From positions 78,220 to 142,219 of the forward strand of contig CAZRKP010000002.1 of NCBI GenBank assembly GCA_964600895.1: a DNA stretch of 64,000 bases. Direction: 5' to 3'. Both the position numbers and the translations under genes were made by a program. How positions within the stretch are numbered: position 1 is the stretch's first letter; every line of letters starts with the position of its first letter. The DNA comes from an uncultured Victivallis sp. Lineage in GTDB: Bacteria > Verrucomicrobiota > Lentisphaeria > Victivallales > GWF2-50-93. The notes beneath the pieces are model-generated. The model saw only the letters and a program-made list of their open reading frames with translations. It made no database searches and was not told the DNA's origin. Of this stretch, positions 22,681 to 41,259 are shown one piece after another.

Positions 22681-22743
22681 GTGATTCCTAAAAAGGATTC
22701 AAAATTTAATGATTCCTGTAAGGAAAGATACAACATTAAAGGC

Positions 22744-22776
22744 AAAAAAAAAGAGGGAGTTTTTCAACTCCCTCTT
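22744..22776 (-). terminator. rho-independent terminator of the pilin-like gene
   Basis: The minus strand reads gagggagt-tgaaaa-actccctc followed by a T9 run. Confidence 0.8.
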
Positions 22777-22804
22777 TAAGGGTCAAATCAAGTATGACCT
22801 GTTA

Positions 22805-23308
22805 TTACCAGGTGAATCCTGAACTTCCAACGTTACCATTGCTCCAGGTCGCTCCGGCGAAACCGGCGGCATGACCGTCGCAGAAGAGAACGTTACCATA
22901 CTTGGTATGGTTGCTGGGTCTGTCAATAGCAACAGCACTGTCAACCGATGTCGACTCATTGAGACCGCTGGCGTAGCTATATGATACGCTGGCGCCCGTA
23001 AGATCGTAGTTATCAGTGATCATGTCTGTTGTTGAAGGGCAATTGTACATTTTGACGTTTTCGAGATATCCGCCTGAACGCAGCATCTCAAATCCAGTTC
23101 TGCCACTAAAGCAGGGGAACCTTTCCTTGTACTCCTGAGAGTACATACGGATAGCAAGACCGATCTGCTTCAGATTGCTGGTACAGCTGATACGGCGAGC
23201 TTTTTCACGAGCTTGACTGAGAGCCGGAAGTAGCATTCCAGCCAGGATGGCTATGATCGCGATAACGACCAGCAGCTCAATCAGGGTGAATCCACGACTT
23301 TTCTTCAT
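22805..23308 (-). CDS. prepilin-type N-terminal cleavage/methylation domain protein, H-X9-DG (DUF1559-like) family
   Basis: The N-terminus is [30 protein letters not shown]. The C-terminal [13 protein letters not shown] matches H-X9-DG. Confidence 0.9.
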
Positions 23309-25964: not shown

Positions 25965-27599
25965 TTATTTCTTATCCAGTGCTCCAAGCATTTCTGTAGC
26001 TGCCTTAAGTGAAGGTTCCTTGAGCAGCATAATCCTGAGGATTTCACGAGCCTCGTCGACTCTCCCGGTATTTGCCAGAACGATCGCGAGATTGATCTCC
26101 GCCTGTTGATTTTTGGGATTTAGCGAAAGGGCCTTCTTGAAATCCCTCTCTGCTTCATTATTCATGTCAAGACGGGTGAAGTAAGTGCCCCTTCTCAAAT
26201 ATAATGAAGAATCATCCGGCAGGATCTGGATTGCCTTGTCGCTTGCGGCCAGGGCATTGATGTATTGTCCAGACTCCTCGAACTGCACCGCAAGGTTTCC
26301 CCAGGTCTTGACGCTCATTGGAGATGTCTTTATTCCTGCAAGCGCCAAACTCATCCTGTCATGCCAATCGTAGCATCTCATGTTAGTGCGGAATGCAAAA
26401 GCTCCTACTATCAGCACTATCAGCAAAATCGTCGACATGCGAGGCAGCTTGCGTGTTAATATGACAATTGCCAGAGAAGCAAACGTGCAAGACCAGACTG
26501 TTGGCAGATAGAAAAGCCTTTCAGCGAATATTGTGCCCGCTGGAATGATGAAGTTTCCGGCAGGTATTACACATAGTGCATAGGCTAGCGTGAGGAAGAT
26601 TATGATCCTCCGTTTTTTGGGATATAGCATTCCAAGCAGAAGCGGGATTCCTGCGAATACCAGCAGAGTGAGCATGGCATAAGGATCGAATATGCTCCTT
26701 GAAGGAAGTATTTGTGCATATGAATAATCATGCGAAAGTGTGGCCGGCCATACAGATTTCCAGATAGCCATTCCTTGGATCCTTACGGCGCTTACTACAC
26801 GTTCTGGAAAAGGACACAGTGCCAGCTGGTTGTCAATGATGGCTTCATTGATGTCTTTTCCAGGGAAAACCGAATGAAGGGCGGAATATCTGGACAGACA
26901 GAAAATTCCAAAGAAAACAAGATATGTTGAATATTTTATCAGCATTGTCTTCCGGCTCGAGTTCTTGAAGACTATGTCGTAAAGGAGGCAAACCGGGATG
27001 AATGCGATCGCATGTTCCTTGGACCATAGGGAAAGCAGGAAGAAAAAGCCGGGCAGAACATAGGTTTTAAATACACTGCCCCTGCTGATATGCAGGAGGA
27101 ATGCCAGCAGGAAGAAGAAAGCACAGAGCAGTTCGGCTCTTCCAAAAGCTGGAACCACGGCCTCGGAGTGTAGCGGATGAACGGCGTATAAGAGGGCAGC
27201 GAGGGCACCATAAATCCTTCCAGGGATGATCTTGCTTGCAACGACATATAACAGGCATGATACTGCAATATGAAGAAGAAGGTTTACTATCCTGAATGAT
27301 GAGGAATCCATTCCGGAGGCTTTGGCGTTGAGCCAGTAGGAGAAGGTTGTCATCGGCCTGTATAGCCCACCACGTCCATCGGCCCAGAATCCACGGTCCC
27401 AGCACTTCAGTGGATTCGACTCGGACATGTAGAAGTTGTCGTTCTTAATAAGGACATTGTCGTCAAAAACAAAGTTTCCGTTCAATCCTCTGAAATATGA
27501 AAGCGCAGACAGGAGGAGGATAAGCGGTAATATGTTCCTTAGGATATTCCTGAGGATATTCCTGCCGGAGGATCCTGGGAAAGGATCGAGCTTGATCAT
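25965..27599 (-). CDS. TMTC/DUF1736-like membrane glycosyltransferase candidate with C-terminal TPR repeats (paralogue 1)
   Basis: Motifs are FVFDDNVL, LYRPMTTFSYWLN, HPLHSEAV and WSKEHAI, followed by TPR repeats. The ATG at 27599 overlaps the mtnP stop (ATGA). The track start at 27707 would run 112 nt into mtnP. Confidence 0.7.
   Translation of the reverse strand: MIKLDPFPGSSGRNILRNILRNILPLILLLSALSYFRGLNGNFVFDDNVLIKNDNFYMSESNPLKCWDRGFWADGRGGLYRPMTTFSYWLNAKASGMDSSSFRIVNLLLHIAVSCLLYVVASKIIPGRIYGALAALLYAVHPLHSEAVVPAFGRAELLCAFFFLLAFLLHISRGSVFKTYVLPGFFFLLSLWSKEHAIAFIPVCLLYDIVFKNSSRKTMLIKYSTYLVFFGIFCLSRYSALHSVFPGKDINEAIIDNQLALCPFPERVVSAVRIQGMAIWKSVWPATLSHDYSYAQILPSRSIFDPYAMLTLLVFAGIPLLLGMLYPKKRRIIIFLTLAYALCVIPAGNFIIPAGTIFAERLFYLPTVWSCTFASLAIVILTRKLPRMSTILLIVLIVGAFAFRTNMRCYDWHDRMSLALAGIKTSPMSVKTWGNLAVQFEESGQYINALAASDKAIQILPDDSSLYLRRGTYFTRLDMNNEAERDFKKALSLNPKNQQAEINLAIVLANTGRVDEAREILRIMLLKEPSLKAATEMLGALDKK
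27529..27564. repeat. 12-bp tandem repeat x3 (two perfect units and one degenerate) encoding RNIL-RNIL-RNIL
   Basis: The sequence reads aatatgttcctt aggatattcctg aggatattcctg. It lies within the N-terminal cytoplasmic tail of paralogue 1. Confidence 0.9.
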
Positions 27600-28489
27600 G
27601 ACTTCAGATATTTCCCTATTATCGGCGCAAGATCTGATTTGATCTTCTGTGGGATCATGTCCCTGTTGGTTATGATTGCCGATGCCAGAGCAGAACCGCA
27701 CTGGCATTTGCCCTTCAGCATCCCAGTAAGTTCAGGAATCCTGAGGATGATCTTCTTGGCGATGCTTGAATTTGCGATCAGGTTCTGGATGATCATGTCA
27801 ACGGTCACATGGTCATGATCCGGATGCCAGCAGTCGTAGTCGGTTACCATCGCGAGTGTGCAGTAACATATCTCCGCTTCCCGTGACAGCTTTGCCTCGC
27901 CAAGGTTTGTCATTCCGATAACATCCATTCCCCATTTCCTGTAAGTCTCGGATTCAGCCTTCGTGGAGAATGCGGGACCCTCCATGTTCAGATATATGCC
28001 TCCCTTGTGGACCTTCGGAGAATTCTTTTTCGAGCCATGGATCTCCTTGACGGAAAGTGATGCTGCCTTGTGTGCAAGCTCAAGAAGCTCCGGGCATACC
28101 GGATGGCCCATTGAGATGTGGGCGGCTATGCCACTGCCGAAGAATGTATGCTCGAGTCCCTTCTTTGTCCTGTCGAAATACTGGTCGACAACGACAATGT
28201 CGCGTGGCCTGTACTTGTTCTTCAGGCTTCCGACCGCGGAAATGCTTATGATGTGAGTGACACCGAGTTTCTTCATGGCGAAGATATTCGCCCGGTGGTT
28301 GAGTTCTCCAGGAAGGATCTTATGGCCCTTGGCGTGCCTTGGAAGGAATACGAAATCGAGTCCGCCAATTGTTCCCGTAGTGAACGTGTCTGATGGCGCA
28401 CCGAATGGAGTTACAACAGAGACCTCCTTCAGATCAGCTATGTTTCCCGCATCATAGACACCGCTTCCGCCAATTATTCCGAGTTTCAT
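27596..28489 (-). CDS. mtnP: S-methyl-5'-thioadenosine phosphorylase
   Basis: MKLGIIGGSGVYD at the N-terminus and PNP/MTAP family motifs throughout. Length is 297 aa. Confidence 0.85.
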   Translation of the reverse strand: MKLGIIGGSGVYDAGNIADLKEVSVVTPFGAPSDTFTTGTIGGLDFVFLPRHAKGHKILPGELNHRANIFAMKKLGVTHIISISAVGSLKNKYRPRDIVVVDQYFDRTKKGLEHTFFGSGIAAHISMGHPVCPELLELAHKAASLSVKEIHGSKKNSPKVHKGGIYLNMEGPAFSTKAESETYRKWGMDVIGMTNLGEAKLSREAEICYCTLAMVTDYDCWHPDHDHVTVDMIIQNLIANSSIAKKIILRIPELTGMLKGKCQCGSALASAIITNRDMIPQKIKSDLAPIIGKYLKS

Positions 28490-28592
28490 ATTATATCCTT
28501 TTTTTAATGCGCTTTGGAATTCGAAGTGGTTATTCTATCCCCCAAATGTATATTCTTCAAACATCACTGGCAATCTATGGGGAACTTGAATT

Positions 28593-29225
28593 ATGAATAT
28601 GAATACAGCCAAGGACGAAATCGCCTATTTCATGAGAAGATTGTACCAGCAAGGCCTGACGACAACATCCGGTGGCAACCTCTCAGTCCGGCTTCCTGGA
28701 AATAAAATCCTTCTAACGCCATCGGCATCCGACAAGGGGCGCATGAAAGGTTCTGAGATTGGCGTGATGGACATGGACGGGAAGATCCTTTCCAAGTTCA
28801 AACCGAGTATTGAGAGCTCGATGCATTTGATGATCTACAAGGTGAGGCCTGATGTCAACGCCGTCGTACATGCACATCCCGTTGTTGCCAGCACTTTTGC
28901 AGCAACGGACGCGGAGATAAACTGCAGACTGCTCGCGGAATCCTATGCGATTCTCGGGAAACCTGCTTACGCACCTTATCTGCTCATGGGCACGAAGGAG
29001 CTCGCAGAGACTGTCTCAAAAACTGCGAAATCCGCAAACTGCATAATCATGAGGAACCATGGCGTATTGACTGTCGGGAAATCTCTCCTCGAGGCCTTTG
29101 ACAGGCTCGAGGTTCTCGAGACCTGCGCGAAGATGACGCTGCTCTCGAACTCCTTTTTCCGGGGAAAGACAAAGCTTCTTGATAGGAATTCTCTTGAAGA
29201 TATTGATGTGCTTATGGGGAGATAA
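28593..29225 (+). CDS. class II aldolase/adducin-domain protein (FucA/MtnB-like)
   Basis: TSGGNLS, the metal-binding His cluster (VVHAHP) and NHGVLTVG are present. It is divergent from mtnP. Confidence 0.7.
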   Translation: MNMNTAKDEIAYFMRRLYQQGLTTTSGGNLSVRLPGNKILLTPSASDKGRMKGSEIGVMDMDGKILSKFKPSIESSMHLMIYKVRPDVNAVVHAHPVVASTFAATDAEINCRLLAESYAILGKPAYAPYLLMGTKELAETVSKTAKSANCIIMRNHGVLTVGKSLLEAFDRLEVLETCAKMTLLSNSFFRGKTKLLDRNSLEDIDVLMGR

Positions 29226-29233
29226 CGGGGATA

Positions 29234-30514
29234 ATGAAGAAAAATTCCGAATGGATACCGCTTATTTTCGCCTTCGGTTTCTTCCTTTCCAGCAGACTTG
29301 TCATAATATTCGGTTATAACACCTATATTTCAGATCTCAACCTGTTCAAGGTCGTTGCTGATTATGGCATGAAGAGCGGATATGTGGCCTACAGGGATTT
29401 CTGGTTTCCTTATCCTCCTTTAGCCCTTCCTCTGATATACATTCCATCCCTGCTGACGGAGAGCTTTGAAGGATTCAGGAAGTTATTCCAGCTTGAGATG
29501 TTCATGTTTGATGCCTTGACACTCTATTTAATGTTCCTTTTCCTTAAGGACAGGATGGGATGCAAGCCCTTGAAGATTGCTTTTGCAACAGTGCTCTATT
29601 CGATCATGGGGCTTTTCGTGGGGCATCTGATATATGACCGGTTTGACATGGCGATCGCAGCGACATTCATGGCATCGGTATATTTTTTTACCGGTGCTGC
29701 AAGATGGAAGACGATTTCTTTCGTGGTCTCATTCCTGGGGGCGATTGTAAAGCTTGTGCCTTTGTTCTGGTCTTTCTTGTTCATTATTTATGAGTCCGTA
29801 ACCGCGGATGGAATAAACTTCAGGAAAGCTCTAAAACCTGTGCTAATAATCTTCTTGGCCTTCACATTTTTCATGATATACTACGATTCGACAGTAAAGC
29901 ACAACCTTTTCAAGCTGATGGGTGAACAGGGAAAGAGGGGTATCCAGATTGAATCCGTATGGGGTGCGCCATGGATGCTTTACTATTCTATTGCGAAGAT
30001 TCCTGCATCTGAAAAACTTAACTCGGAATATGCAGCCCAGCATATCAATGATTCCGTGCTTCCAAAATACTATCTCATCGCTTCCAAGTATGCCGGATTC
30101 CTCATGCTGGGAATATTCCTGGCTGCGACAGCCCTTATGAAATGGAAGAGGAGAGTTTCGGATAAACCGGAACCTTGGACGTTTCTCCTGGGAATGCTGT
30201 TCGTGCTTGTGCTGCTGATATCAACCCAGCGGGTGCTGTCACCTCAGTATATGATATGGCTTATGCCAGGCCTGGCGACAGTTTCCTTTGGCCGCAGACC
30301 TGATATTCCACTAATTGCCATCTCAACTGCGATATTCGCACTTTCATGGCTCGGTTTCGACCTGGGATACTGGAAGTATGTCGAGTTGGACCTGAAGTTT
30401 GTCGCTATTGTAAATCTCAGGAACCTTCTGCTTCTCTTCCTATGCATAATTCTGCTCGGACGAATTTTTAAAAGTGAAAATGGGAAAGATGGAGGACATG
30501 CTGCAGATGCATAG
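29234..30514 (+). CDS. GT-C membrane glycosyltransferase candidate, DUF2029/GT87-like
   Basis: It has ~10 TM helices. The first-loop motif SDLNLF..Y..G..VAYRDFWFPYPPLAL resembles polyprenol-P-mannose-dependent GT87 mannosyltransferases. Confidence 0.5.
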   Translation: MKKNSEWIPLIFAFGFFLSSRLVIIFGYNTYISDLNLFKVVADYGMKSGYVAYRDFWFPYPPLALPLIYIPSLLTESFEGFRKLFQLEMFMFDALTLYLMFLFLKDRMGCKPLKIAFATVLYSIMGLFVGHLIYDRFDMAIAATFMASVYFFTGAARWKTISFVVSFLGAIVKLVPLFWSFLFIIYESVTADGINFRKALKPVLIIFLAFTFFMIYYDSTVKHNLFKLMGEQGKRGIQIESVWGAPWMLYYSIAKIPASEKLNSEYAAQHINDSVLPKYYLIASKYAGFLMLGIFLAATALMKWKRRVSDKPEPWTFLLGMLFVLVLLISTQRVLSPQYMIWLMPGLATVSFGRRPDIPLIAISTAIFALSWLGFDLGYWKYVELDLKFVAIVNLRNLLLLFLCIILLGRIFKSENGKDGGHAADA

Positions 30515-32135
30515 GTCTATTAGCAAATTTGTCCTTTGGTTTCTTCCATTTCTGCTGATTTCCATGGTTTATCTGCAGGTTGTCCGATTTGAATTCACAA
30601 ACTGGGACGATGAAAGCAATATCTCCAAGAATCCCTTTCTCCAGAAATTGAGCTTTGAAAATATCCGGGCAATCCTTTCCCCGGGCGACATGCCGGGAGA
30701 ACAGCTATATATCCCATTCACCTACTTCAGCTACCTTGTCGAATCTTCCATATTCGGAATGAAATCATCTGTCATGCACTTCGACAATCTCCTCCTTCAT
30801 ATCATCAATTCCATGCTTGTCTTTTCCCTTGCAATGATCTTTCTGAGAAACAAACTGGCATCCCTTTTATGTGCTCTTCTGTTCGCTCTTCATCCGCTGC
30901 AGGTTGAAGCCGTGGCCTGGTGCATGGGAAGAAAGGATCTTCTGATGGCTCTCTTCTCCCTCTTGTTCCTCCTGAAATTTTCCGATTTTGCCGCGACAAG
31001 ATCGAAGAAGGCTTATATGCTGTCCTTGGTTTTCTTTTTCATTGCGGTTTTCTCGAAACCTTCCGTCTTCGTCCTTCCGCTGCTCCTGCCGGCGTTCTTC
31101 TGGTATTATGACAGGAAGATTGAAAAAGAGGATATCATCAGGTTCCTGCCATTCTTTGTGATATCGGCAATAGCTTGCCTGATTAATTCGAAACTCGATA
31201 TGAACACCTTCGGGCACGAGATGAAATTTGTAATGTTCAGGATAGTCTTCATCCCGGTAGTAGCTGAGGACTGGCTTTCAAGGATTCTCCTTCTGCAGGA
31301 TCCGATTGCATACTATTCATGGTATGACTACTATGATGGAACCCGTATATCCATATGCGGATTGCTGATACTCCTCTCGTTTGTCACAGTTGGAGTTTTT
31401 GCATACATCCGAAGGCTCAAGATCGTGTTCATCGGGATACTCCTATCCCTCGTGTCCTTGCTTCCCGCGGCGATGCTTGTGTCATGGTCCTTCCGTGATT
31501 TCATTACCGCGGACAGATACGGATACTTCCCGATGATAGGGATTTTCCTGATCACCGCCTCTGCCCTTACGGCAACACCGCGGAAGCATCTTAAGCTGAT
31601 ATTGGCTTCTGCATTATCAGCGTTCACCATTTTTGCGGCCTGGAAATCATATCATCAGGTGGGAATCTGGCGGAATTCCGAGACGCTATGGTCATCTGTT
31701 GCAAAGGCACGACCTGATTCGTTCATCGCCCATTACAATCTTGGCAATTATTACTTCAAGGCAAAATATGACCTGAAATCGGCGGAGTCGCACTACAGGA
31801 AGGCAAATTGGATCACGCCCGACTCGGATGCATGGTTCAATACGGGAATAATATGCGAACTTACGGACCGCAAGGAGGAATCCGCCATTTGCTACTCGCG
31901 CGCCTTTGTTCTTAATCCGGGCTCTGCATATGTCCTGAAGAAATTCGCTCTGGCATGCTACGCCAGGGGCGAACTGGAAAAGGCACTGAGATGTTTCCTT
32001 AGGCTTACTGAACTTGCTCCGGATTCCCCGGACGCCTATCTCTACTGCGCAAGGATCTTCGATATGAAAGGGCAGAAGGAGATGGCCGCGCAGGCCTTCA
32101 TGTGCTACGAGAAGCTGAAAAAACAAAATAAATAG
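30474..32135 (+). CDS. TMTC/PMT-like membrane glycosyltransferase candidate with C-terminal TPR repeats (paralogue 2, divergent)
   Basis: Motifs are FTNWDDESN, LYIPFTYFSY and HPLQVEAVAW, followed by TPR repeats. Several in-frame starts (30474 GTG; ATGs at 30480, 30489, 30498 and 30507) overlap the end of the upstream gene. Confidence 0.65.
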   Translation: MKMGKMEDMLQMHRSISKFVLWFLPFLLISMVYLQVVRFEFTNWDDESNISKNPFLQKLSFENIRAILSPGDMPGEQLYIPFTYFSYLVESSIFGMKSSVMHFDNLLLHIINSMLVFSLAMIFLRNKLASLLCALLFALHPLQVEAVAWCMGRKDLLMALFSLLFLLKFSDFAATRSKKAYMLSLVFFFIAVFSKPSVFVLPLLLPAFFWYYDRKIEKEDIIRFLPFFVISAIACLINSKLDMNTFGHEMKFVMFRIVFIPVVAEDWLSRILLLQDPIAYYSWYDYYDGTRISICGLLILLSFVTVGVFAYIRRLKIVFIGILLSLVSLLPAAMLVSWSFRDFITADRYGYFPMIGIFLITASALTATPRKHLKLILASALSAFTIFAAWKSYHQVGIWRNSETLWSSVAKARPDSFIAHYNLGNYYFKAKYDLKSAESHYRKANWITPDSDAWFNTGIICELTDRKEESAICYSRAFVLNPGSAYVLKKFALACYARGELEKALRCFLRLTELAPDSPDAYLYCARIFDMKGQKEMAAQAFMCYEKLKKQNK

Positions 32136-32140
32136 GGAAA

Positions 32141-34114
32141 TTATTTATCTTCCAAAGCTTTTCCGACTTCTTCATCGCTCAAGCGGAAAACAAGTATTGA
32201 ATTGCCAATGATGGCATCTGGAATCCGGTTCTGGTTGTGCAGATAAAGACACAGCTTGAGGAACCTGAGATATTCATAGATCCTGTATTTTTTCTGTTGT
32301 TCCTCCGACAATCCTGATTTATTCCCAGTATTATGATATGCTTTTATTTCCGCGGAAAGATTCTCAAAATAACTGTCGTCCGCGGCTTCGAGCTTGTATC
32401 CTGTTTCGTTATAGCATGTCTCGGCAAGGTACACATACTGGTACATGGTCGCGCTTATGCAGTAGATGCCGCCTTTCAATTCGAACATCTCATCGCTCTT
32501 CTGTATGCGGTATGAGGGAAGCATCTTTGCCTTGATGCCATAATAACCGACATCCGAATTGCTGAAGCAGGAGAAGTAAACCTCGGATTTCTGGGTGTTG
32601 TTCTTATCGAGCCAGCTCTTCAACTCCTTGAGATCCTGGCCCCAGTCGAGGGAACTGTCGACAAGATGACTGTATCCGTTCTGCGGTCCACCGGCAATGA
32701 TGTTCATATAGGAAATGTAGTTTGGCCAGGCATATAGACATGAGATCGCTGTCAGACCGAGCAGGACTCCAACAGCCCATTTTACGAACTTCCTTCCCTC
32801 AAGGATGATGAAGTAAGTCCAGCCGCAGATGATGAAGAGGCATGGATAGATCGGAAGAAGATGCCTGTTGCCGATGTTCGAACGGTTACTTATCGCAAAA
32901 ATAAGGTAAATGGCAAGGAACACGGCGAACGGGATCAGGTCTCGGAATTTCCCGGATTCGAAAATCATCAATGGATTGTTCAGGCTCTTGTTCTTGACGT
33001 AAAGCGAAAAACCACAGAATAGCAGAAGCAGAAGGAAAGGGAAGGGGGTTTTGTAGAAGAATGAAACTATGAAATAGTGCCACCAGCCTTCCTCTGAAAT
33101 TTCTCCATCCAGGAACGCGTATCTTTTCTTTCCAAATTTCAGGAAGAATGAATATCCATAGAGGTAGGCTTCGGGAAGAAGCTTGTATTCCCTGGCCATT
33201 GAGATCAGCTTCCCAAAGGATCCGCTTTCCTTCAAAAATGCCGTGGTTGATTGTTCGATGGCTATCTTGTCAGGTCCCGATTCATCCCTTGCCATCGAAT
33301 ACTTGAAGCCACAGGCTCCCCATATGAAAACCACTATCACTATCGAATTGACAATCGCTGCACAAAGGATAGCAATGATTTTTTCCTTCTGATCGCGAAG
33401 TTCGCGGAGTTTTCCGAATCCCTTGACGACAAGAGGTTTCCTGGAGAATAATGTCACCAGTATCATGATAAGGTAGAATGGAATTATCACAGGGGCGGAA
33501 TGCTTTGTAACGAAAAGAAGGCCTAAAGTGAGTGAAGAAAAGATCAGTGTTGATGGATTAATCCCGTTAACGAGCTTCCAAATGGACCATACGGCTGCCA
33601 AAAGGACGAATGTCGAGATCATGTCAGTTGTGGCAAGGCTTCCATGTGCGAGGATTTCTGGAGAGAACACGAACAGCAAAAGCGAGATCAGGCCGCCGTA
33701 ATGCCCGAAGATGCTCCGTGAGACCAGATATACTGAAAGGCCGAAAAGGAGAGTCATTGAAATGACCAGCAGCCTTGTTCTTGAAAGCATCTTTTCGGTA
33801 TCGTTGCCTGAGCGGAAGAAGAAATCCCTGGTATTTTCCCATTCATTAACCTCGGAATAGAAGTTCTTGCCTTTGTAAGGGAATTTCAAATCCATTGGGA
33901 GCAGGGGGAGAGCAAGCATCGCTTCCGTGAAGAATCCACCTTCGGAACACATTGTCAGGTCACCGTTCTTCAGGTAGTTGTATCCGCCAGTCACATGGAA
34001 TGGTTCATCGAAGACAGCAGATTTCCTGAAGGTCGATCCGAGGGCTATCGCTAAAAATATGGCGAGCAGCAGCAATACCGCCAACGCCTCGGTTATGAAT
34101 TTCTTGTTCAGCAT
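32141..34114 (-). CDS. GT39/PMT_2-like (ArnT-type) polyprenyl-phosphate-sugar-dependent glycosyltransferase
   Basis: It has the first-loop FDEPFH acidic motif and SPEILAHGSLATTDM, more than 10 TM helices, and a ~200 aa C-terminal soluble domain. Confidence 0.6.
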   Translation of the reverse strand: MLNKKFITEALAVLLLLAIFLAIALGSTFRKSAVFDEPFHVTGGYNYLKNGDLTMCSEGGFFTEAMLALPLLPMDLKFPYKGKNFYSEVNEWENTRDFFFRSGNDTEKMLSRTRLLVISMTLLFGLSVYLVSRSIFGHYGGLISLLLFVFSPEILAHGSLATTDMISTFVLLAAVWSIWKLVNGINPSTLIFSSLTLGLLFVTKHSAPVIIPFYLIMILVTLFSRKPLVVKGFGKLRELRDQKEKIIAILCAAIVNSIVIVVFIWGACGFKYSMARDESGPDKIAIEQSTTAFLKESGSFGKLISMAREYKLLPEAYLYGYSFFLKFGKKRYAFLDGEISEEGWWHYFIVSFFYKTPFPFLLLLLFCGFSLYVKNKSLNNPLMIFESGKFRDLIPFAVFLAIYLIFAISNRSNIGNRHLLPIYPCLFIICGWTYFIILEGRKFVKWAVGVLLGLTAISCLYAWPNYISYMNIIAGGPQNGYSHLVDSSLDWGQDLKELKSWLDKNNTQKSEVYFSCFSNSDVGYYGIKAKMLPSYRIQKSDEMFELKGGIYCISATMYQYVYLAETCYNETGYKLEAADDSYFENLSAEIKAYHNTGNKSGLSEEQQKKYRIYEYLRFLKLCLYLHNQNRIPDAIIGNSILVFRLSDEEVGKALEDK

Positions 34115-34200
34115 GGCATTATTTTAACCTCACTCTGCGAATTCCGCAAACCGTAAGGAGATGATGGGCGATTGTCTTTGTCATATAACCTTTTAACTTC

Positions 34201-34229
34201 TTGAACTATATGCTGTAGCATATTATTTT
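34201..34229 (+). promoter_or_regulatory. putative promoter TTGAAC-N17-TATTTT with a perfect 7-2-7 palindrome (ATATGCTgtAGCATAT) in the spacer
   Basis: Read by eye in the divergent GT39 / PPM-synthase intergenic region. The palindrome spans 34208-34223. Confidence 0.3.
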
Positions 34230-34266
34230 GTTTGGATAAAGAATGTTTCCTAAAGGAAGAGGTAAT

Positions 34267-34989
34267 ATGCCTGTTTCATGTTCTGTAGTCATACCTACGT
34301 ACAATGAAAAGGAGAACATAGGTGTTCTTCTCGAAAGGCTTGTGAAGATCCTTGCCGGGCGTGAGTTCGAGATAATCGTCGCCGACGACGATTCTCCTGA
34401 CATGACCTGGCAGGTCGTTGAAGAACTCTCGAAAAAGGATCCTCGCATCCGGTGCATCAGGCGTACACATGACAAGGGACTCAGCCCAAGCATTGTCGAG
34501 GGATTTGATTCGGCGAAAGGGGAATATCTCTGCGTAATGGATGCCGATCTCCAGCATGATGAATCATTCCTGCCAAAAATGCTCGAGGAATGCGCGAAGT
34601 GCGATCTTGTCTTCGGAAGCCGTTATGCGCCAGGAGGAGGTATTGAGGGGGGATGGCCAATCCATAGGAGAATAATGAGCTGGGCTGCCACTGCCATGGC
34701 GAAAGGTTTCCTTGGAATCAAAACAAGCGATCCAATGTCTGGGTTCTTTGTAGTAAAGGCATTGTCTTACAAGAGGATCCGCCAGTACCTGAATCCTCGG
34801 GGATTCAAGATACTTCTCGAGATCATGTATCTGCTCCAGATCCATCCGGAAAAATCTGAGTTCAAGGAAGTGCCTATCTTTTTCAGGAAAAGAGTTGCTG
34901 GAGAGAGCAAACTGGGTATTGGAGTCATGAAGGATTATCTGGTTTCACTCTGGAAACTCTCAAAGGTCACTATTTCATCGAATAAATGA
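34267..34989 (+). CDS. polyprenol-phosphate mannose synthase (Dpm1/Ppm1-like GT2)
   Basis: VVIPTYNEKENI, IIVADDDSPD and VMDADLQHD (DXD) are present. An AGGAAGAGG RBS precedes the ATG at 34267; the track start is 34243. Confidence 0.85.
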   Translation: MPVSCSVVIPTYNEKENIGVLLERLVKILAGREFEIIVADDDSPDMTWQVVEELSKKDPRIRCIRRTHDKGLSPSIVEGFDSAKGEYLCVMDADLQHDESFLPKMLEECAKCDLVFGSRYAPGGGIEGGWPIHRRIMSWAATAMAKGFLGIKTSDPMSGFFVVKALSYKRIRQYLNPRGFKILLEIMYLLQIHPEKSEFKEVPIFFRKRVAGESKLGIGVMKDYLVSLWKLSKVTISSNK

Positions 34990-35009
34990 GCCGTGGAGGC
35001 TAATTTCTA

Positions 35010-37097
35010 ATGAGCAAGATAAGCTATGATTCAAGGGCCATCCTGATAGAAGGGAAGCGGATGATTCTTCTCAGTGGATCAATCCATTATCCGCGCAGTA
35101 CGCCGGGAATGTGGCCGGAATTGATGCGGAAAAGCCGAAAGGCAGGCCTTAATACGATAGAGACATATGTCTTCTGGAATCTACACGAAAAGATTCGCGG
35201 TATCTATGATTTCTCAGACAGGCTCGATCTGCGCCGTTACTGTGAGCTGGCCCAGTCCGAGGGGCTAAATCTCATTCTCCGTATTGGTCCATACATCTGT
35301 GCGGAGACGAATTTCGGAGGTCTTCCACCTTGGCTCAGGGACGTCCCTGGAATGACCATCCGCACCTTCAACAAGCCATTCATGGATGAAATGGAACGCT
35401 GGATGCGGATGCTAGTGGAGTATCTTAGGCCCTGCTTTGCCGGCAATGGTGGGCCGATAATCATGGCGCAGGTTGAAAATGAATATGACAACATAGGCAA
35501 ATATTACGGCGAAGGTGGTGAGAAATATTGCAAATGGGCAGTTGACCTTGGTGTTTCACTGAACCTCGGAGTCCCTTGGATAATGTGTTCCGGGAGCGCA
35601 CCTGGATCAATTGAGACAATCAATGGTTTTCTTGCACATCACGGATTGGAGAGGCAGTTCAAGGAACATCCCGACCAGCCGGCGATATGGACCGAGAACT
35701 GGCCTGGCTGGTACGATACCTGGGGCTACTCGCATCATGCACGCTCCCCGGAACATGTTGCATACGGTGTTGCCCGTTTCTTTGCGGGCGGAGGAACTGG
35801 AGTCAACTACTACATGTGGCATGGGGGGACCAACTTCGGTCGCGAGTCCATGTATTTGCAGACGACCTCCTACGATTTTGATGCTCCTCTCGATGAATAC
35901 GGAATGGAAACCCGCAAGAGCAGGCATCTTGCGAAACTACACAAAATCCTCGCCGATGCATCAGGAATACTCCTTCATCTTGACTCTCCTGAGATCCGAA
36001 AGATTGGGAACAAGGCATCGGCCTTCATTTACGATGGTAAATCGAAAGGGCGGCTTGTTTTTCTGTGCAACGACGATACTGGGGTCCCAGCATCCATCAG
36101 TTTTGAAGGACGCACATATGAGCTGAAACCTGCATCGGTGGTGATTATCCGCAACAATTCCCCCGTCCTGGATACTGCCGTACTGGAAGAATCAAAGTTA
36201 TCATGCAAGGCAAGGTGGACGGTTAAGTCTGTCCTCTCCAAATTCGAAACTTGGGAGGAACCAATTCCAGATGATGGGATATCATGTTCCGTCAGGTCGA
36301 AAACTCCAGTTGAACAATTATCACTGACACGCGATGATACCGATTATTGCTGGTATACCACGACGATGGAAGTTAAAGATGGACGACAGAAGAAAGGGTT
36401 TCTGTCATTGAAAGGTGTTGCCGACTACGTCTATGTCTTTATCGATGGCCAGTTGATGGCAAGCACGCCTGTCCCTCTCAAGGAGAACCGTGTTCTTGAG
36501 AACGACGAGGATTTTACTCAGGCATTTGAATTTTCCCTTAAGCCTGGTAGATATCGTCTCCAGATTCTTTGCTGTGCACTCGGTCTGATCAAGGGCGACT
36601 GGATGCTTGGATTCAAGAACATGGTGAAGGAAAGAAAGGGGCTTTGGGGCTCCACCTCATGGGATGGTAAGCTTTTGAAGGGAGATTGGACAATGTTTCC
36701 GGGGCTGCAGGGGGAAAGATTCCGCCTCTATGACGTTTTTGCATGCCAGCCGGAATGGTCATCCAAGCCGCGGAGTAAGCGTGCTTGCCTGCGCTGGTGG
36801 CGTACAAGTTTCCCACGCCCGAAAGGTAATTCTCCGATAGCCCTGGACCTCTCCAGCATGGGGAAGGGGCTTGCATGGATCAACGGGATTTGCATTGGCC
36901 GTTACTGGCTTGCGAAATCTGTTGGCAGGAATCCGATATCACCCCGTGACGCTTTCATTGACGCAAGCTTTACAGGCATGCCGACGCAGACCTTATACCA
37001 TGTACCGAGGGATTTTGTTAAAGACACCAACAGTCTTGTCATTTTTGAGGAGCAGGGGGGCGATCCCAATAAGATTCGCCTTATGCTAAGAAACTAA
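35010..37097 (+). CDS. glycoside hydrolase family 35 beta-galactosidase (no signal peptide)
   Basis: GSIHYPRSTPGMWPELM, ETYVFWNLHE, RIGPYICAETNFGG and the acid/base QVENEY strongly resemble plant-type GH35. Confidence 0.9.
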   Translation: MSKISYDSRAILIEGKRMILLSGSIHYPRSTPGMWPELMRKSRKAGLNTIETYVFWNLHEKIRGIYDFSDRLDLRRYCELAQSEGLNLILRIGPYICAETNFGGLPPWLRDVPGMTIRTFNKPFMDEMERWMRMLVEYLRPCFAGNGGPIIMAQVENEYDNIGKYYGEGGEKYCKWAVDLGVSLNLGVPWIMCSGSAPGSIETINGFLAHHGLERQFKEHPDQPAIWTENWPGWYDTWGYSHHARSPEHVAYGVARFFAGGGTGVNYYMWHGGTNFGRESMYLQTTSYDFDAPLDEYGMETRKSRHLAKLHKILADASGILLHLDSPEIRKIGNKASAFIYDGKSKGRLVFLCNDDTGVPASISFEGRTYELKPASVVIIRNNSPVLDTAVLEESKLSCKARWTVKSVLSKFETWEEPIPDDGISCSVRSKTPVEQLSLTRDDTDYCWYTTTMEVKDGRQKKGFLSLKGVADYVYVFIDGQLMASTPVPLKENRVLENDEDFTQAFEFSLKPGRYRLQILCCALGLIKGDWMLGFKNMVKERKGLWGSTSWDGKLLKGDWTMFPGLQGERFRLYDVFACQPEWSSKPRSKRACLRWWRTSFPRPKGNSPIALDLSSMGKGLAWINGICIGRYWLAKSVGRNPISPRDAFIDASFTGMPTQTLYHVPRDFVKDTNSLVIFEEQGGDPNKIRLMLRN

Positions 37098-38779
37098 TGT
37101 ATGATTCTTTCAACAAATTACTGAAGAATAAATACGCCGTATGCCTTATTCTCGCTGTAGTGGCTGCGGTCCCGTATCTTTCCTCTTTGAAAGGGGAATT
37201 CGTCTTCGATGACATACCCCTTCTGCAGGCGGATCCATTCTACCAGGCAGACCACTCATTCCTTGACTGCTGGAAACGCGACTACTGGATGGAACCGATG
37301 GCGCAGGGACTCTACAGGCCTCTCACGACTTTCTCATACTGGCTAAACTTCAAGATATGCGGACTTTATTCTCCCGCATTCAGAACTGTGAATCTGCTCC
37401 TGAATATTTTCGCCGTCATCATTGTCTTCTTCCTTGCATTGAATCTTAAAACAGGAAGGAAAGCAGCTTTTCTCTGTGCTGCAGTCTTCGCACTTCATCC
37501 GCTCCATACTGAGGCAGTGATCCCTGCCTTTGGTCGAGGAGAGGTTCTATGCGGCCTTTTTATTTTTCTTGGCCTGCTTTTCCATATTAAGTCAGTCAAG
37601 AAACCATTTATGTCCGTCCTGACAGCGATTTGCTTCATTCTTGCCTGCTGGTCTAAGGAGCATGGGGTCACCCTTCTGCCGTTGTGCGTGCTCTACGACA
37701 TCTATTCCGGACGCTTGAAGATGGAAAAAGTATCTTTCCTTTCAAATATGAAATTCTACGGCTTCTACATTGCAGCAGTGGCTGTCGTTGTGACGACAAG
37801 ATATGCCGCGATGGGAACGGTATTGCCAGCTATGACAAGATTTGATTCTTTTTTCGACAACCAGCTGGCCCTTTGCTCATATCCCGTAAGGGTGCTCAGC
37901 GCAATCAATATCCAGGGATATGCCCTGCTGCTGTTCATCTGGCCGAAGACATTGTCGCATGACTATTCCTTTGCACAGATGCTCCCATTGAAGTCCGCAA
38001 TAGACCCGATCGGTCTATTAGGTGCAGCAGTAGTCATTTCATTGCCTTTCATGCTCGCATGGATTTTTCCGAGGTCCAGGAAACAGATCATTTTCCTGTC
38101 AATTGCATATCTCATATGTATTCTGCCCGCAGCAAACATAATAACTCCTACCGGGACAATTTTCGCTGAAAGGCTTTATTATATTCCAAGCTTATGGTTA
38201 TGCATGCTGTTGGCCTGCATAGTTGTCAGGTATTCATATGGGATCGATAAGGGGCTGGTTCCAATACTGGTGTTGTCGATAATTCTTGTGCTTGCAGCTT
38301 TAGGGTTGAGGACGTTCGTTCGGTCGTTCGACTGGCAAAACCAGCTCAGCATTTCCCTGGCGGGTGTTGAGACCTCGCCGAAAAGCGCCAAGACTTGGAA
38401 CAATCTTGCCGTCCAATATGCCCATGAGGAAAAGCTCGATGACGCCATAAAGTTCTGTGGAGAGGCGATAAAGATTTATCCCAGTTTCAAGATGGCATAT
38501 ATCAACAGGGGATTCTACTTCATCAAGAAGGGCGATCTGAGGTCCGCAGAAAAGGATCTCCACAAGGTCATCGAACTGGGAACTGAGAATACAGAGGTAT
38601 ATAATAAGCTTGGTGCGATACTCGCAAACCTCGGCCGGGAAGAGGAGGCGATGAAATACTGGAAGATATCGCTTAAGCTTGACAGTTCCCAGACTATGAT
38701 GAAAAGGGCGGTGGAGGACCTGCAGAAGGATATAGATGGGAAAAATCCGAAGCTCGAACTCCGAAATTCGAAACAATGA
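37097..38779 (+). CDS. TMTC/DUF1736-like membrane glycosyltransferase candidate with TPR repeats (paralogue 3)
   Basis: Motifs are FVFDDIPL, LYRPLTTFSYWLN, HPLHTEAV and WSKEHGV, with a TPR tail. Its ATG shares one base with the GH35 stop (TAATG). Confidence 0.7.
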   Translation: MYDSFNKLLKNKYAVCLILAVVAAVPYLSSLKGEFVFDDIPLLQADPFYQADHSFLDCWKRDYWMEPMAQGLYRPLTTFSYWLNFKICGLYSPAFRTVNLLLNIFAVIIVFFLALNLKTGRKAAFLCAAVFALHPLHTEAVIPAFGRGEVLCGLFIFLGLLFHIKSVKKPFMSVLTAICFILACWSKEHGVTLLPLCVLYDIYSGRLKMEKVSFLSNMKFYGFYIAAVAVVVTTRYAAMGTVLPAMTRFDSFFDNQLALCSYPVRVLSAINIQGYALLLFIWPKTLSHDYSFAQMLPLKSAIDPIGLLGAAVVISLPFMLAWIFPRSRKQIIFLSIAYLICILPAANIITPTGTIFAERLYYIPSLWLCMLLACIVVRYSYGIDKGLVPILVLSIILVLAALGLRTFVRSFDWQNQLSISLAGVETSPKSAKTWNNLAVQYAHEEKLDDAIKFCGEAIKIYPSFKMAYINRGFYFIKKGDLRSAEKDLHKVIELGTENTEVYNKLGAILANLGREEEAMKYWKISLKLDSSQTMMKRAVEDLQKDIDGKNPKLELRNSKQ

Positions 38780-38803
38780 CAAATCCATGGGCAAAAAAGC
38801 TGA

Positions 38804-40522
38804 ATGAAGATAACATGCAATAGTCCAAAGCTCCTAAGAAAAGTATTTCCATACGCGGTCGTCCTCTGCATACTTGCGGCAGCCATTCCATATTTCTATT
38901 CCCTCTACGGGGAGTTTGTCTTCGATGACATTCCCCTCATCAAGAACGATCCGTTCTACGTCAAGGAGGCAAACCCTTTTAAATGCTGGAACCGCGATTT
39001 CTGGATGGAAAGCAAGAAGCAGGGGCTCTACAGGCCGGTCACATTGTTCACTTTCTGGCTCAACGCAAGATTCAAGGACGACAGCGGGAGGGCTATTTCA
39101 GCGATCTTCAGGACGACAAACCTCATAATCCATATACTTGTCACGCTTTTGGTCCTTAAACTGGCGCTTAGATTGAAGTTCGGACACTGGACTGCGATAT
39201 TCGCAGCTGCGATATTCGCAGTTCACCCGATACATACCGAAGCCGTGATTCCAGCATACGGGAGAGCGGAACTCCTCTGCGCCTTATTCACGCTCCTTGC
39301 CCTCATATTGCACACATATGTCGACAGGAACAAGCTTGCATGTGTATTTGCCGGGATCAGCTTTCTCTTCGCCTGCTGGTCCAAGGAGCATGGTGTGGCG
39401 GTACTCCCGCTTGTATTTCTTATGGATCTCTACCTCAAGAGGCCTGCCGGTTTGAAGCAAGCGGTTGAACTTGTCAAAGGCAGGATGTGGATTTACCTAT
39501 CCTATGTGGCGGTGCTCGGAATATTTTTTGCCTCGAGGTATTTTGCCACCGGTTCACTGTTGCCCAGCAAGGAATTCTTCGATCCTGCGATCGACAATCC
39601 GATAGCTCTCTGCCATTTCCCCTTGAACTTCATAAGCGCCCTTAAAGTCCAGGGTTTTGCTTTGTCGAAGTTCTTCTGGCCAGCGGTCCTCTCACATGAC
39701 TACTCCTATGCCCAGCTTCTCCCGTCCACTTCAGTCCTTGACTGGAAGGCATGGCTTACCGTAATTCTGTTTTTCGGAATCCCGCTTCTGATGTCATTTG
39801 CCTTCCGCGACCTTAGATACAAGCTTCTTTTCCTTCTGGCGGCCTATATGGTATGCATCCTTCCGTCCGGGAATTTCATTGTCATGACAGGAACGATCTT
39901 CGGGGAAAGGCTCCAGTATATCCCCAGCATAATGCTTTGCATCTTTGTGGCGCTGATAATCAAGGAACTGTTTGGAAGACTGGAATTCAGGACAGTTATT
40001 GCAGTCATGTTCGCGATCATCTTCCTGCTGTCATTGAGGACACGTGCAAGAGGCGAGGACTGGGACACTCAGATGAGCCTTGCTCTGGCCGGTGTAAGAA
40101 CTGCACCAATGAGCATAAAGACATGGAACAACCTTACCGTTGAACTGGGTGAAGCCGCCACGCTTGAGAAGGATCCTGCATTGAAGAGGAAGATGTACGA
40201 GGAGGCGGTATTATCATGCGACATGGCCCTGTCGATCTATCCGAAGTATATCACGGCCTATGCCAACAGGGGCATCTACAACTCCTATCTCGGGAACTAC
40301 AAGCAGGCCGAGTCCGACCTCAGGATGGCGATTTCCATGCATGCCAACCATTTCATGGCCAACTATACGCTCGGAGCACTTCTTGCGAACCAGGGGAGAT
40401 TCGAGGACGCCAGAGTGATATGGGAAAGGCTCCTGAAGACAAATCCTAATGACAGACTTCTCAAGGAGTCCTATTCTCGACTATTGAAGGATATGGCGAA
40501 AAAGTCCGGAAAGGAAAATTGA
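38804..40522 (+). CDS. TMTC/DUF1736-like membrane glycosyltransferase candidate with TPR repeats (paralogue 4)
   Basis: Motifs are FVFDDIPL, LYRPVTLFTFWLN, HPIHTEAV and WSKEHGV, with a TPR tail. Confidence 0.7.
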   Translation: MKITCNSPKLLRKVFPYAVVLCILAAAIPYFYSLYGEFVFDDIPLIKNDPFYVKEANPFKCWNRDFWMESKKQGLYRPVTLFTFWLNARFKDDSGRAISAIFRTTNLIIHILVTLLVLKLALRLKFGHWTAIFAAAIFAVHPIHTEAVIPAYGRAELLCALFTLLALILHTYVDRNKLACVFAGISFLFACWSKEHGVAVLPLVFLMDLYLKRPAGLKQAVELVKGRMWIYLSYVAVLGIFFASRYFATGSLLPSKEFFDPAIDNPIALCHFPLNFISALKVQGFALSKFFWPAVLSHDYSYAQLLPSTSVLDWKAWLTVILFFGIPLLMSFAFRDLRYKLLFLLAAYMVCILPSGNFIVMTGTIFGERLQYIPSIMLCIFVALIIKELFGRLEFRTVIAVMFAIIFLLSLRTRARGEDWDTQMSLALAGVRTAPMSIKTWNNLTVELGEAATLEKDPALKRKMYEEAVLSCDMALSIYPKYITAYANRGIYNSYLGNYKQAESDLRMAISMHANHFMANYTLGALLANQGRFEDARVIWERLLKTNPNDRLLKESYSRLLKDMAKKSGKEN

Positions 40523-40584
40523 CAAATCCCATATTTGAATTATTATTTCACCCCCACAATGACTATTAAGGACCTTTATTGACC

Positions 40585-41259
40585 ATGACAAAGAAGAACC
40601 ACGAAGAAAAAGATACGAAACAGGCTGATGACTCCGCAAATGGCGAAGTGAAGTCCGATAAGGACCTTGCTGCGCATTCCCCGGGAAACAATGCTCATTC
40701 AAGTTCTGACAAGCCCGTGGAACCCGAACTTTCCCCTGAAGACATCTTAAAACAGAAGATCGCCGAGCTTGAGCTCGAACTGCTTGGAACAAAGGACAAG
40801 CTTCTCTGGGCATATGCGGACTTCGACAACTTCCGCAAAAGGAACTACAGGGAGATGACCGACCTCAGGACAATGGTCAAAGCCGACACCATAACTCCGA
40901 TGCTCAATGTCTTCGACCATTTCAAACTTGCCCTCGAGGCCGCCGACAAGAAACCTGACTTCAAGATCCTGGATGAGGGCATGAAGATGATCCTTGCGGA
41001 ATTCAAGAAGGCAATGGACGATCTTGACATCGAGATCATAAATGTTCCGGAAAACACAGTGTTTGATCCGAACATCCATGACGCCGCGGGAAATGAACCC
41101 TCAGACAAGATAGCTGAGGGTAAAGTCATAAGACAGTGGCGCCAGGGATACAAGATGGGTGAGAGGATTTTAAGACCTGCTTCCGTCGTGGTCAGCAGCG
41201 GTCCTGCGAAGACCGAGGACAATAAGCCTGAAACTGAAGCGGAAAAGAAGAAAGACTGA
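40585..41259 (+). CDS. grpE: nucleotide exchange factor GrpE
   Basis: DFDNFRKR and a GrpE C-terminal beta domain are present. The ATG at 40585 is preferred over the TTG at 40579. Confidence 0.9.

Follow-up and report, generated by a model that had tools for sequence, protein, structure and literature searches.

A 64,000-nucleotide stretch from an uncultured Victivallis sp. (contig CAZRKP010000002.1, positions 78,220 to 142,219; hereafter the window) encodes four related membrane proteins, A to D, each ending in tetratricopeptide repeats (TPRs). Sequence comparison identifies A, C and D as bacterial members of the TMTC branch (CAZy GT105, DUF1736-type) of the GT-C glycosyltransferase superfamily, the branch of the metazoan O-mannosyltransferases TMTC1-4. 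It is very probable that the three act as periplasmic GT-C glycosyltransferases of the TMTC family. By the same comparison B is a member of a separate and widespread sister family that also joins a GT-C core to TPRs. The genes are as follows.

25965..27599, minus strand: paralogue A, TMTC-type GT-C glycosyltransferase, 544 aa (membrane core 1-410, TPR domain 411-544)
30474..32135, plus strand: paralogue B, sister TPR/GT-C family lacking the DUF1736-loop motifs, 553 aa from a GTG start
37097..38779, plus strand: paralogue C, TMTC-type GT-C glycosyltransferase, 560 aa
37097..38329, plus strand: membrane core of C, residues 1-411, with 11 transmembrane (TM) helices and a GT-C fold as predicted by AlphaFold2 (AF2), Foldseek and positive-inside analysis
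38330..38779, plus strand: predicted periplasmic TPR domain of C, residues 412-560, about four repeats (Pfam TPR, TPR matches in the PDB, AF2 helix pattern)
38804..40522, plus strand: paralogue D, TMTC-type GT-C glycosyltransferase, 572 aa

All four reading frames are present as a preliminary description of the window had placed them. The frame of A can be extended to 27707, a longer form that runs into the MTAP-like gene upstream; from the ATG at 27599 the overlap with the stop of that gene is 4 nt, and the orthologues of A are likewise 544 aa long. Database gene calls start B two to five codons later (551 or 548 aa). The four-way alignment gives identities of 40% for A with C, 43% for A with D and 23% for A with B; overall, A, C and D share 40-44% among themselves and B 21-23% with each of them. 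In a tblastn search of the window with the first 415 residues, pairs drawn from A, C and D reach E values of 1e-93 to 1e-105, whereas B against the others stays at 1e-6 to 1e-18. On these comparisons the resemblance of A, C and D is homology, well past chance. A fifth paralogue was also sought in the window, and the same search finds none. In all four proteins Pfam places TPRs within the final ~130-150 residues, as had been claimed, and these are the sole Pfam families above threshold; the TPR domains measure 134-154 aa, or about four repeats. An NCBIfam search returns just generic, sub-threshold TPR matches for the proteins.

The preliminary description proposed that all four proteins are kin to metazoan TMTC O-mannosyltransferases and would match PMT or DUF1736 profiles. 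As the Pfam scores fall below their curated cut-offs, the relationship was tested by direct comparison with the N-terminal domains of human TMTC1-4 (Additional file 1 of PMC7801869). The alignment proposed earlier shows A, C and D matching TMTC1-4 across the membrane domain, with E values for the cores of 1e-17 to 1e-32, or 1e-20 to 1e-29 by phmmer. BLASTP aligns 380-455 aa at 25-28% identity in 11 of the 12 pairs, the exceptional pair being A and TMTC2 (188 aa, 32% identity). With hhalign, the A/C/D-family profile matches TMTC1-4 at a probability of 100% (E 2.5e-63, 387 columns), against 0.1-0.4% for ArnT as a control. B is also related, with phmmer E values of 1e-9 to 1e-11 against human TMTC1-4 and an hhalign probability of 99.8% for its family (E 6.1e-29, 332 columns). 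The BLASTP alignments of B are partial, covering mainly residues ~76-193, or 30-156 against TMTC1. Compared with each other, the A/C/D-family and B-family profiles align at E 2.2e-47. Homology to TMTC is thus established by phmmer, BLASTP and hhalign for all four proteins, although the sub-threshold Pfam scores formally count against the earlier claim by the refuting condition set with it. PF08409 (TMTC_DUF1736) is carried by more distant bacterial homologues that are 30-34% identical to C, and PMT_2 (PF13231) by orthologues of A and B in other genomes.

Further support comes from the motifs of the membrane core. A, C and D share FVFDD, GLYRP(M/L/V)T, HP(L/I)H(S/T)EAV(V/I)PA(F/Y)GR and (L/C)WSKEH in the same order, with FVFDD at residues 43-47 of A, 35-39 of C and 38-42 of D. 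Two more motifs are common to the three: the long TM7-TM8 loop contains LSHDYS, and (A/G)ERLxY precedes TM10. Their positions are given below.

A, minus strand: FVFDD 27459-27473; GLYRP 27354-27368; HPLHSEAVVPAFGRAE 27132-27179
A, minus strand, continued: WSKEH 27012-27026; LSHDYS 26721-26738; FAERLFY 26508-26528
C, plus strand: FVFDD 37199-37213 (D38, D39); GLYRP 37307-37321; HPLHTEAVIPAFGRGE 37496-37543
C, plus strand, continued: WSKEH 37649-37663 (K187, E188); LSHDYS 37952-37969 (D289); FAERLYY 38162-38182 (E358, R359, Y362)
D, plus strand: FVFDD 38915-38929; GLYRP 39023-39037; HPIHTEAVIPAYGRAE 39224-39271
D, plus strand, continued: WSKEH 39377-39391; LSHDYS 39689-39706; FGERLQY 39899-39919

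All the motifs of the strict set described earlier are found in their proposed order, except that A has W-D-R-G-F-W where W-x-R-D-(F/Y)-W had been claimed. TMTCs are characterized by seven motifs, M1 to M7: DD, SHKSYRP, RxD, KE(T/Q)xxT, DW, PxxP and ERxxY (Eisenhaber et al., 2021; PMC7801869). FVFDD corresponds to M1 (DD), GLYRP to M2 (SHKSYRP), WSKEH to M4 (KE), LSHDYS to M5 (the DW in the DUF1736 loop of TMTC) and (A/G)ERLxY to M7 (ERxxY). HPxHxEAV is a segment of TM3 that is followed by M3, which reads RxD in TMTC and RxE in A, C and D. Six of the seven motifs therefore align, and M6 (PxxP) does so in part only (LPAAN...P). The aligned residues of C are D38/D39, Y73-R74-P75, R147-x-E149, K187-E188, D289-Y290 and E358-R359-x-x-Y362. 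These motif residues show little or no variation among 124 homologues.

Structural modelling extends the likeness to the fold. The AF2 model of full-length C, built on a 62-sequence alignment, has a mean confidence (pLDDT) of 94.8 and a pTM of 0.92; it contains 11 TM helices with long loops after TM1 and TM7, and the eight to nine helices past the last TM helix form about four TPRs, as had been claimed for the C terminus. Since a fold search of the PDB with the full-length model retrieves nothing but TPR proteins, the membrane core was modelled and searched separately (pLDDT 87.5, pTM 0.90). Its 32 best matches comprise 29 GT-C glycosyltransferases and three GPI-transamidase subunit chains; Foldseek gives the top 25 a probability of 0.99-1.00 and the others 0.75-1.00. 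The GT-C matches include STT3, Chaetomium Pmt4 (the highest, TMq 0.58), PglB, ArnT (TMq 0.50) and Pmt1/Pmt2, as well as AglB, AftD, AftA, EmbA/B/C, ALG3 and DPY19. As modelled, the membrane core is a GT-C fold. Searching the PDB with the core, by sequence or by profile, finds no similar chain, which suggests that the copy searched holds no TMTC structure and that none has been solved.

The charge distribution predicts the orientation of the protein in the membrane. Lysine and arginine reach a density of 0.28 in the short loops of C predicted to be cytoplasmic vs 0.07 in the long loops predicted to be periplasmic, and the same bias is seen family-wide. This predicts a cytoplasmic N terminus; with one TM helix ahead of the DD loop and eleven ahead of the TPR domain, the loop and the TPRs would both lie in the periplasm. 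A cytoplasmic FVFDD loop would have spoken against the architecture proposed earlier, a PMT-like TM core with non-cytoplasmic TPRs; the AF2 model and the charge bias favor that architecture, with the loop predicted on the periplasmic side. TMTCs are described with the same topology, consisting of 11 TM helices, an N terminus inside and lumenal TPRs (Eisenhaber et al., 2021; PMC7801869).

B differs from the other three proteins in a consistent manner. The variant motifs reported for it (NWDDE, LYIPF and HPLQVEAV) are present:

B, plus strand: NWDDE 30600-30614; LYIPF 30705-30719; HPLQVEAVAWCMGRKD 30891-30938; FSKPS 31050-31064; ADRYGY 31509-31526

Set against the TMTC motifs, B reads YIP, RKD, KP and DRYxY and lacks M5. 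Its core retrieves 458 proteins spread over many phyla, with Omnitrophota, Planctomycetota, Bacteroidia, Myxococcota and Peregrinibacteria among them; many of these carry PMT_2 and none carries DUF1736. Counted over 121 sequences of this family, N-W-D-D is kept at D45 in 120 and at D46 in 118, the proline of Y-(I/H)-P (P81) in 120, and H-P-x-(Q/H)-V-E...W in 119-121. The residues of R-K-D are found in 116, 114 and 98 of the 121, K195 of S-K-P in all 121, P196 in 95, and A-D-R-Y-x-Y in 109-120. The TM7-TM8 loop is shorter in this family and lacks DNP...LSxDYS. In a tree with TMTC1-4, the B family splits from a clade of TMTC and DUF1736-type bacterial proteins in 50/50 bootstraps. The preliminary description took B for a degenerate version of the others, and this does not hold, as its variant residues form the near-invariant signature of a separate family. 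This widespread family of bacterial 'TPR + PMT_2' proteins, to which B conforms in NWDD, Y-(I/H)-P, HPx(Q/H)VE..W, RKD, SKP, ADRYxY and the C-terminal TPRs, deviates from A, C, D and TMTC by a proline for the glutamate of M4, an isoleucine or histidine for the arginine of M2 and its shorter TM7-TM8 loop. Given its different signature in loops 1, 3 and 4, B probably uses a different donor or acceptor.

The evolution of the paralogues can be followed in related loci. These belong to Lentisphaerae GWF2_50_93 (L001 and L009) and GWF2_49_21 (L007 and L008), the nearest GTDB representatives (both listed as Lentisphaerae bacterium), and to three further genomic loci (L006, L010 and L011). In a neighbor-joining tree of 124 membrane cores, A, C and D fall into three separate clades, each filled with orthologues from metagenome-assembled genomes of Victivallales and Lentisphaeria, and the A clade is nearer to D than C is. 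Identity between the paralogues is 42-44% for the core and 38-39% for the TPR domain; between orthologues the figures are 58-71% and 62-70%, respectively. The order C-D-grpE-dnaJ is found in five of five related loci examined, at ~57-73% identity. A-MTAP-aldolase is found in three related loci, with orthologues of A in L001, L006 and L010, and B has orthologues of 62-66% identity in three related loci.

The tandem arrangement of C and D had been read as a sign of recent duplication. Under that explanation C and D would be diversifying after a recent event and B would be a decaying copy; C and D do lie adjacent on the same strand, 24 nt apart, and B does miss several motif residues. The evidence leaves this explanation with next to no probability. 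The identity of C and D is no more than ~44%, each falls in a separate clade of orthologues, A is nearer to D than C is, and the tandem with grpE and dnaJ is kept in five other loci. As for decay, the variant residues of B are kept in 95-121 of 121 family members across many phyla, and its orthologues persist in three related loci. The separate orthologue clades and the conserved synteny indicate instead that the C-D tandem is ancient and maintained, and that A, C and D are ancient paralogues. In the tree with human proteins TMTC1-4 are monophyletic (50/50 bootstraps), so the bacterial triplication is independent of the animal one. In L001, L006, L007, L010 and L011 C and D overlap by 4-17 nt, which suggests translational coupling. 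By analogy with Pmt1-Pmt2, a C-D heteromer is conceivable.

The four genes are part of a cluster (18998-40522) located between gatA/gatB and grpE/dnaJ and packed with polytopic genes of the envelope-glycosylation type. Its members are a 622-aa membrane protein, a Wzy_C protein, a YfhO-like protein, A, a 426-aa membrane protein, B, a PMT_2/ArnT-like protein, a family 2 glycosyltransferase (GT2), C and D. Two parts of the cluster enter into the proposals on the function of the paralogues.

34243..34989, plus strand: GT2, dolichol/polyprenol-phosphate-mannose-synthase (DPMS)-like, 248 aa, no TM domain, Pfam Glycos_transf_2
20863-23308, minus strand: Wzy_C/O-antigen-ligase-family protein (605 aa; weak match to WaaL 7tpg, possible C-terminal TPR) with a prepilin-type gene
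22805-23308, minus strand: the prepilin-type gene, 167 aa, N_methyl + DUF1559, the only one in the 64-kb window

The GT2 matches Pyrococcus furiosus DPMS (5mlz) at E 3.9e-49, with residues 12-241 aligned to 24-248 and DADLQH conserved. This alignment spans the whole catalytic and interface region, and the next-best PDB matches stand at ~1e-10 to 1e-12 (ArnC and GtrB at ~1e-10 to 1e-11). The archaeal enzyme is a GT2 of the DPM1/Ppm1 type whose four C-terminal TM helices are missing from the window protein. In three of the four related loci with upstream sequence (L001, L007 and L010) the GT2 gene is directly upstream of the C orthologue, and in L001 and L007 it overlaps the called start of C. 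The GT2 is therefore a candidate maker of the lipid-linked donor, and its similarity suggests a polyprenyl-phosphate-mannose donor.

Several known enzymes offer points of comparison. Metazoan TMTC1-4 (GT105), which act on cadherins and protocadherins as O-mannosyltransferases of the endoplasmic reticulum (ER), share with A, C and D the homologous 11-TM GT-C core (25-28% identity over ~400 aa), the order of M1-M5 and M7, an inside N terminus, non-cytoplasmic TPRs and the occurrence of several paralogues per genome. They face the ER lumen, whereas the bacterial proteins would face the periplasm and use a bacterial polyprenol as carrier. Prokaryotic TMTC homologues are mentioned in the same study that defined the motifs, and as of 2021 TMTC activity itself was without direct demonstration (PMC7801869). 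The PMT/POMT enzymes (GT39), including actinobacterial PMT, share the GT-C fold and an acidic loop-1 motif with A, C and D, and both Pmt4 and Pmt1/2 rank high in the fold comparison of the C core. They use a polyprenyl- or dolichyl-phosphate-mannose donor and Ser/Thr acceptors, both of which would have counterparts in A, C and D. The likeness is at the level of the fold only, as A, C and D carry TPRs in place of the MIR domain; neither a MIR match in Pfam nor a Pmt1, Pmt2 or Pmt4 match by hidden Markov model against PDB sequences is found. TMEM260 (GT117), a protein-specific O-mannosyltransferase with distant bacterial homologues, resembles A to D in combining a GT-C core with a C-terminal TPR-like region, but it belongs to a different sequence family with no similarity seen. 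Finally, TfpW of Pseudomonas aeruginosa is published as an 11-TM protein with an essential DDX in periplasmic loop 1 and periplasmic C-terminal TPRs, and it transfers a lipid-linked sugar to a protein acceptor (10.1101/2020.04.19.049825). Its sugar is D-Araf from decaprenyl-P-Araf, and its gene is directly linked to pilA.

From these relationships a mechanism can be proposed in which A, C and D, in the inner membrane, would catalyze transfer at the periplasmic face. The site would be formed by the DD and the Y-R-P helix of loop 1, together with the R-x-E that follows HPxHxEAV, the K-E of loop 3, the D-Y of the TM7-TM8 loop and the E-R-x-x-Y ahead of TM10; in line with models of TMTCs, DD, K-E, D and E-R-x-x-Y may take metal, phosphate and catalytic-base roles. 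The DPMS-like GT2 would place mannose on polyprenyl phosphate at the cytoplasmic face, a flippase would carry the lipid-linked sugar to the periplasmic leaflet, and A, C and D would then move it onto Ser/Thr residues of exported proteins chosen by their TPR domains. The age and separate conservation of the three paralogues make it most likely that their acceptors differ, or that C and D act as a pair; the substrate diversification suggested earlier is in this respect a reasonable inference. Homology, motifs, fold, topology parity and gene linkage are the observed parts of this picture, and the sugar, the protein acceptors and the division of labor its inferred parts. That A, C and D are protein O-mannosyltransferases has roughly even chances. 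The explanation as a whole, with the TMTC-branch proteins as enzymes of periplasmic protein O-mannosylation and B as a sister-family enzyme, is favored slightly. A broader version would have the Victivallales locus encode a complete periplasmic protein O-mannosylation system, with the GT2, three TMTC orthologues and the sister-family enzyme, unrelated to actinobacterial GT39. Exported proteins would then be divided by class among the three TMTC-type enzymes, or C and D would form an obligate pair like Pmt1-Pmt2. This extension is tentative, with less than an even chance of being correct.

A number of observations weigh against the proposed O-mannosylation by A, C and D. The M2 of A, C and D lacks the His-Lys of the animal SHKSYRP and reads GLYRP, their M5 is D-Y and not D-W, and their M6 is partial. 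In Pfam, A, C and D score 17-18 bits for PF08409 against a cut-off of 27, with no match for B; the PMT_2 cut-off of 26.1 bits is likewise missed by A (23.4) and D (17.3), and C and B have no match to it. Animal TMTCs have ~8-10 or more TPRs compared to ~4 in A, C and D. No flippase gene was identified, and the GT2 is missing from the L006 locus. Three distant bacterial TMTC-like loci (L003-L005) have no donor-synthase GT2 as a neighbor, so that the GT2 linkage is specific to the Victivallales locus. The literature searched contains no experiment on any bacterial member, and the sole characterized bacterial enzyme found there that joins GT-C and TPRs, TfpW, moves arabinofuranose and not mannose (10.1101/2020.04.19.049825). 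Moreover, clusters with Wzy_C, YfhO and PMT_2/ArnT-like proteins are of a type that usually decorates envelope glycans, not proteins.

This last point leads to an explanation in which the fold and family are the same, yet the acceptor is an envelope glycan or lipid, such as lipopolysaccharide or lipid A, capsule or exopolysaccharide, or peptidoglycan, and the TPR domain docks envelope machinery or binds the polymer. The conserved set of polytopic glycan-type enzymes around the paralogues (Wzy_C, YfhO and one or two PMT_2/ArnT-like proteins) speaks for such a role, ArnT is among the structural matches of the C core, and bacterial three-component systems of a polyprenyl-phosphate-sugar GT2, a flippase and a GT-C enzyme typically modify glycans (PMC11127046). 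However, the kinship in sequence is specifically with TMTC protein O-mannosyltransferases and not with ArnT (hhalign 100% vs 0.1%), and in the TPR-bearing glycosyltransferases TMTC, TMEM260, OGT and TfpW the TPR goes with protein acceptors. A glycan or lipid acceptor is therefore rather unlikely, though it is the most serious of the alternatives. Less probable again is a role like that of TfpW, in which prepilin-type (DUF1559) proteins would be the acceptors and the sugar might not be mannose. TfpW matches in architecture (N terminus inside, 11 TM helices, DDX in periplasmic loop 1 and a periplasmic TPR) and glycosylates a pilin encoded next to it, while the only prepilin-type gene of the window is inside the cluster and stands beside the A orthologue in L006. 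Yet in the window this gene adjoins Wzy_C and not A, with YfhO between, and C and D lie 14 kb from it. The GT2 of the locus is DPMS-like and no arabinose pathway is present. The likeness to TfpW is one of published architecture.

The TMTC-type proteins of the window are not a new kind of system, and A to D are further members of a very large bacterial family that is already catalogued. Clustered at 50% identity, this family numbers 38,677 clusters at E<=1e-3, 10,342 at <=1e-10 and 461 at <=1e-30. Database annotations bear out the earlier remark on bacterial homologues, which carry just a TPR or hypothetical-protein label with no substrate assigned; some members are automatically named 'DUF1736 domain-containing protein' or 'protein O-mannosyl-transferase'. 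No characterized bacterial DUF1736/TMTC-like protein was found in the literature searched. The useful and more specific lead is a conserved multi-paralogue locus linked to a DPMS-like synthase. If periplasmic or surface proteins are indeed O-mannosylated by such enzymes, this would constitute a second, widespread bacterial route beside that of actinobacterial PMT and would give a function to thousands of 'TPR repeat protein' annotations. Should the locus encode a complete system, it would give animal cadherin O-mannosylation a tractable model in bacteria and possibly an evolutionary relative. With short TPRs, conserved motifs and a linked donor-synthase gene, the bacterial homologues would be easier to express, crystallize and assay than the ER enzymes.

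The remaining features of the cluster are listed here.

18998-20866, minus strand: polytopic membrane protein, 622 aa, no Pfam/NCBIfam match at E<=1
27596-29225: MTAP-like phosphorylase (PNP_UDP_1) and class II aldolase, a divergent pair conserved mid-cluster in L001, L006, L007 and L010
29234-30514, plus strand: polytopic membrane protein, 426 aa, no Pfam/NCBIfam match at E<=1, absent from related loci
32141..34114, minus strand: PMT_2/ArnT-like GT-C-type membrane protein, not a TMTC paralogue, 657 aa, PMT_2 at 35.8 bits (above cut-off)
35010-37097, plus strand: GH35 beta-galactosidase, E 1.8e-101, between GT2 and C in this genome only

The 622-aa protein contains 'SWDELTY' in its N-terminal loop (residues ~137-143), which is GT-C-like in look. 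The Wzy_C and prepilin pair is directly beside the A orthologue in L006 (1-2106), and its arrangement resembles the gene pairs of pilins with O-oligosaccharyltransferases (pilA-pilO/tfpO, pilA-tfpW). The MTAP/aldolase pair is reminiscent of methionine-salvage-type chemistry and has no evident link to glycosylation. The 657-aa PMT_2/ArnT-like protein is conserved in L001, L006, L007 and L010. A second PMT_2-type gene (~675 aa), absent from the window, is found in relatives (L001 7167-9194, L006 7884-9905 and L007 7196-9223), where it sits between the homologue of the 657-aa protein and GT2 or C. The GH35 beta-galactosidase shows no obvious signal peptide by eye, and GT2 abuts C in L001, L007 and L010, which lack the GH35 insert. 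A promoter and terminator scan of 34000-41000 stays at chance level and is uninformative on operon structure. Within that chance-level scan, an 11/12 match to the sigma-70 consensus (TTGACA-16-TATTAT) is located at 40519-40546 on the plus strand, over the last codons of D and just upstream of grpE.

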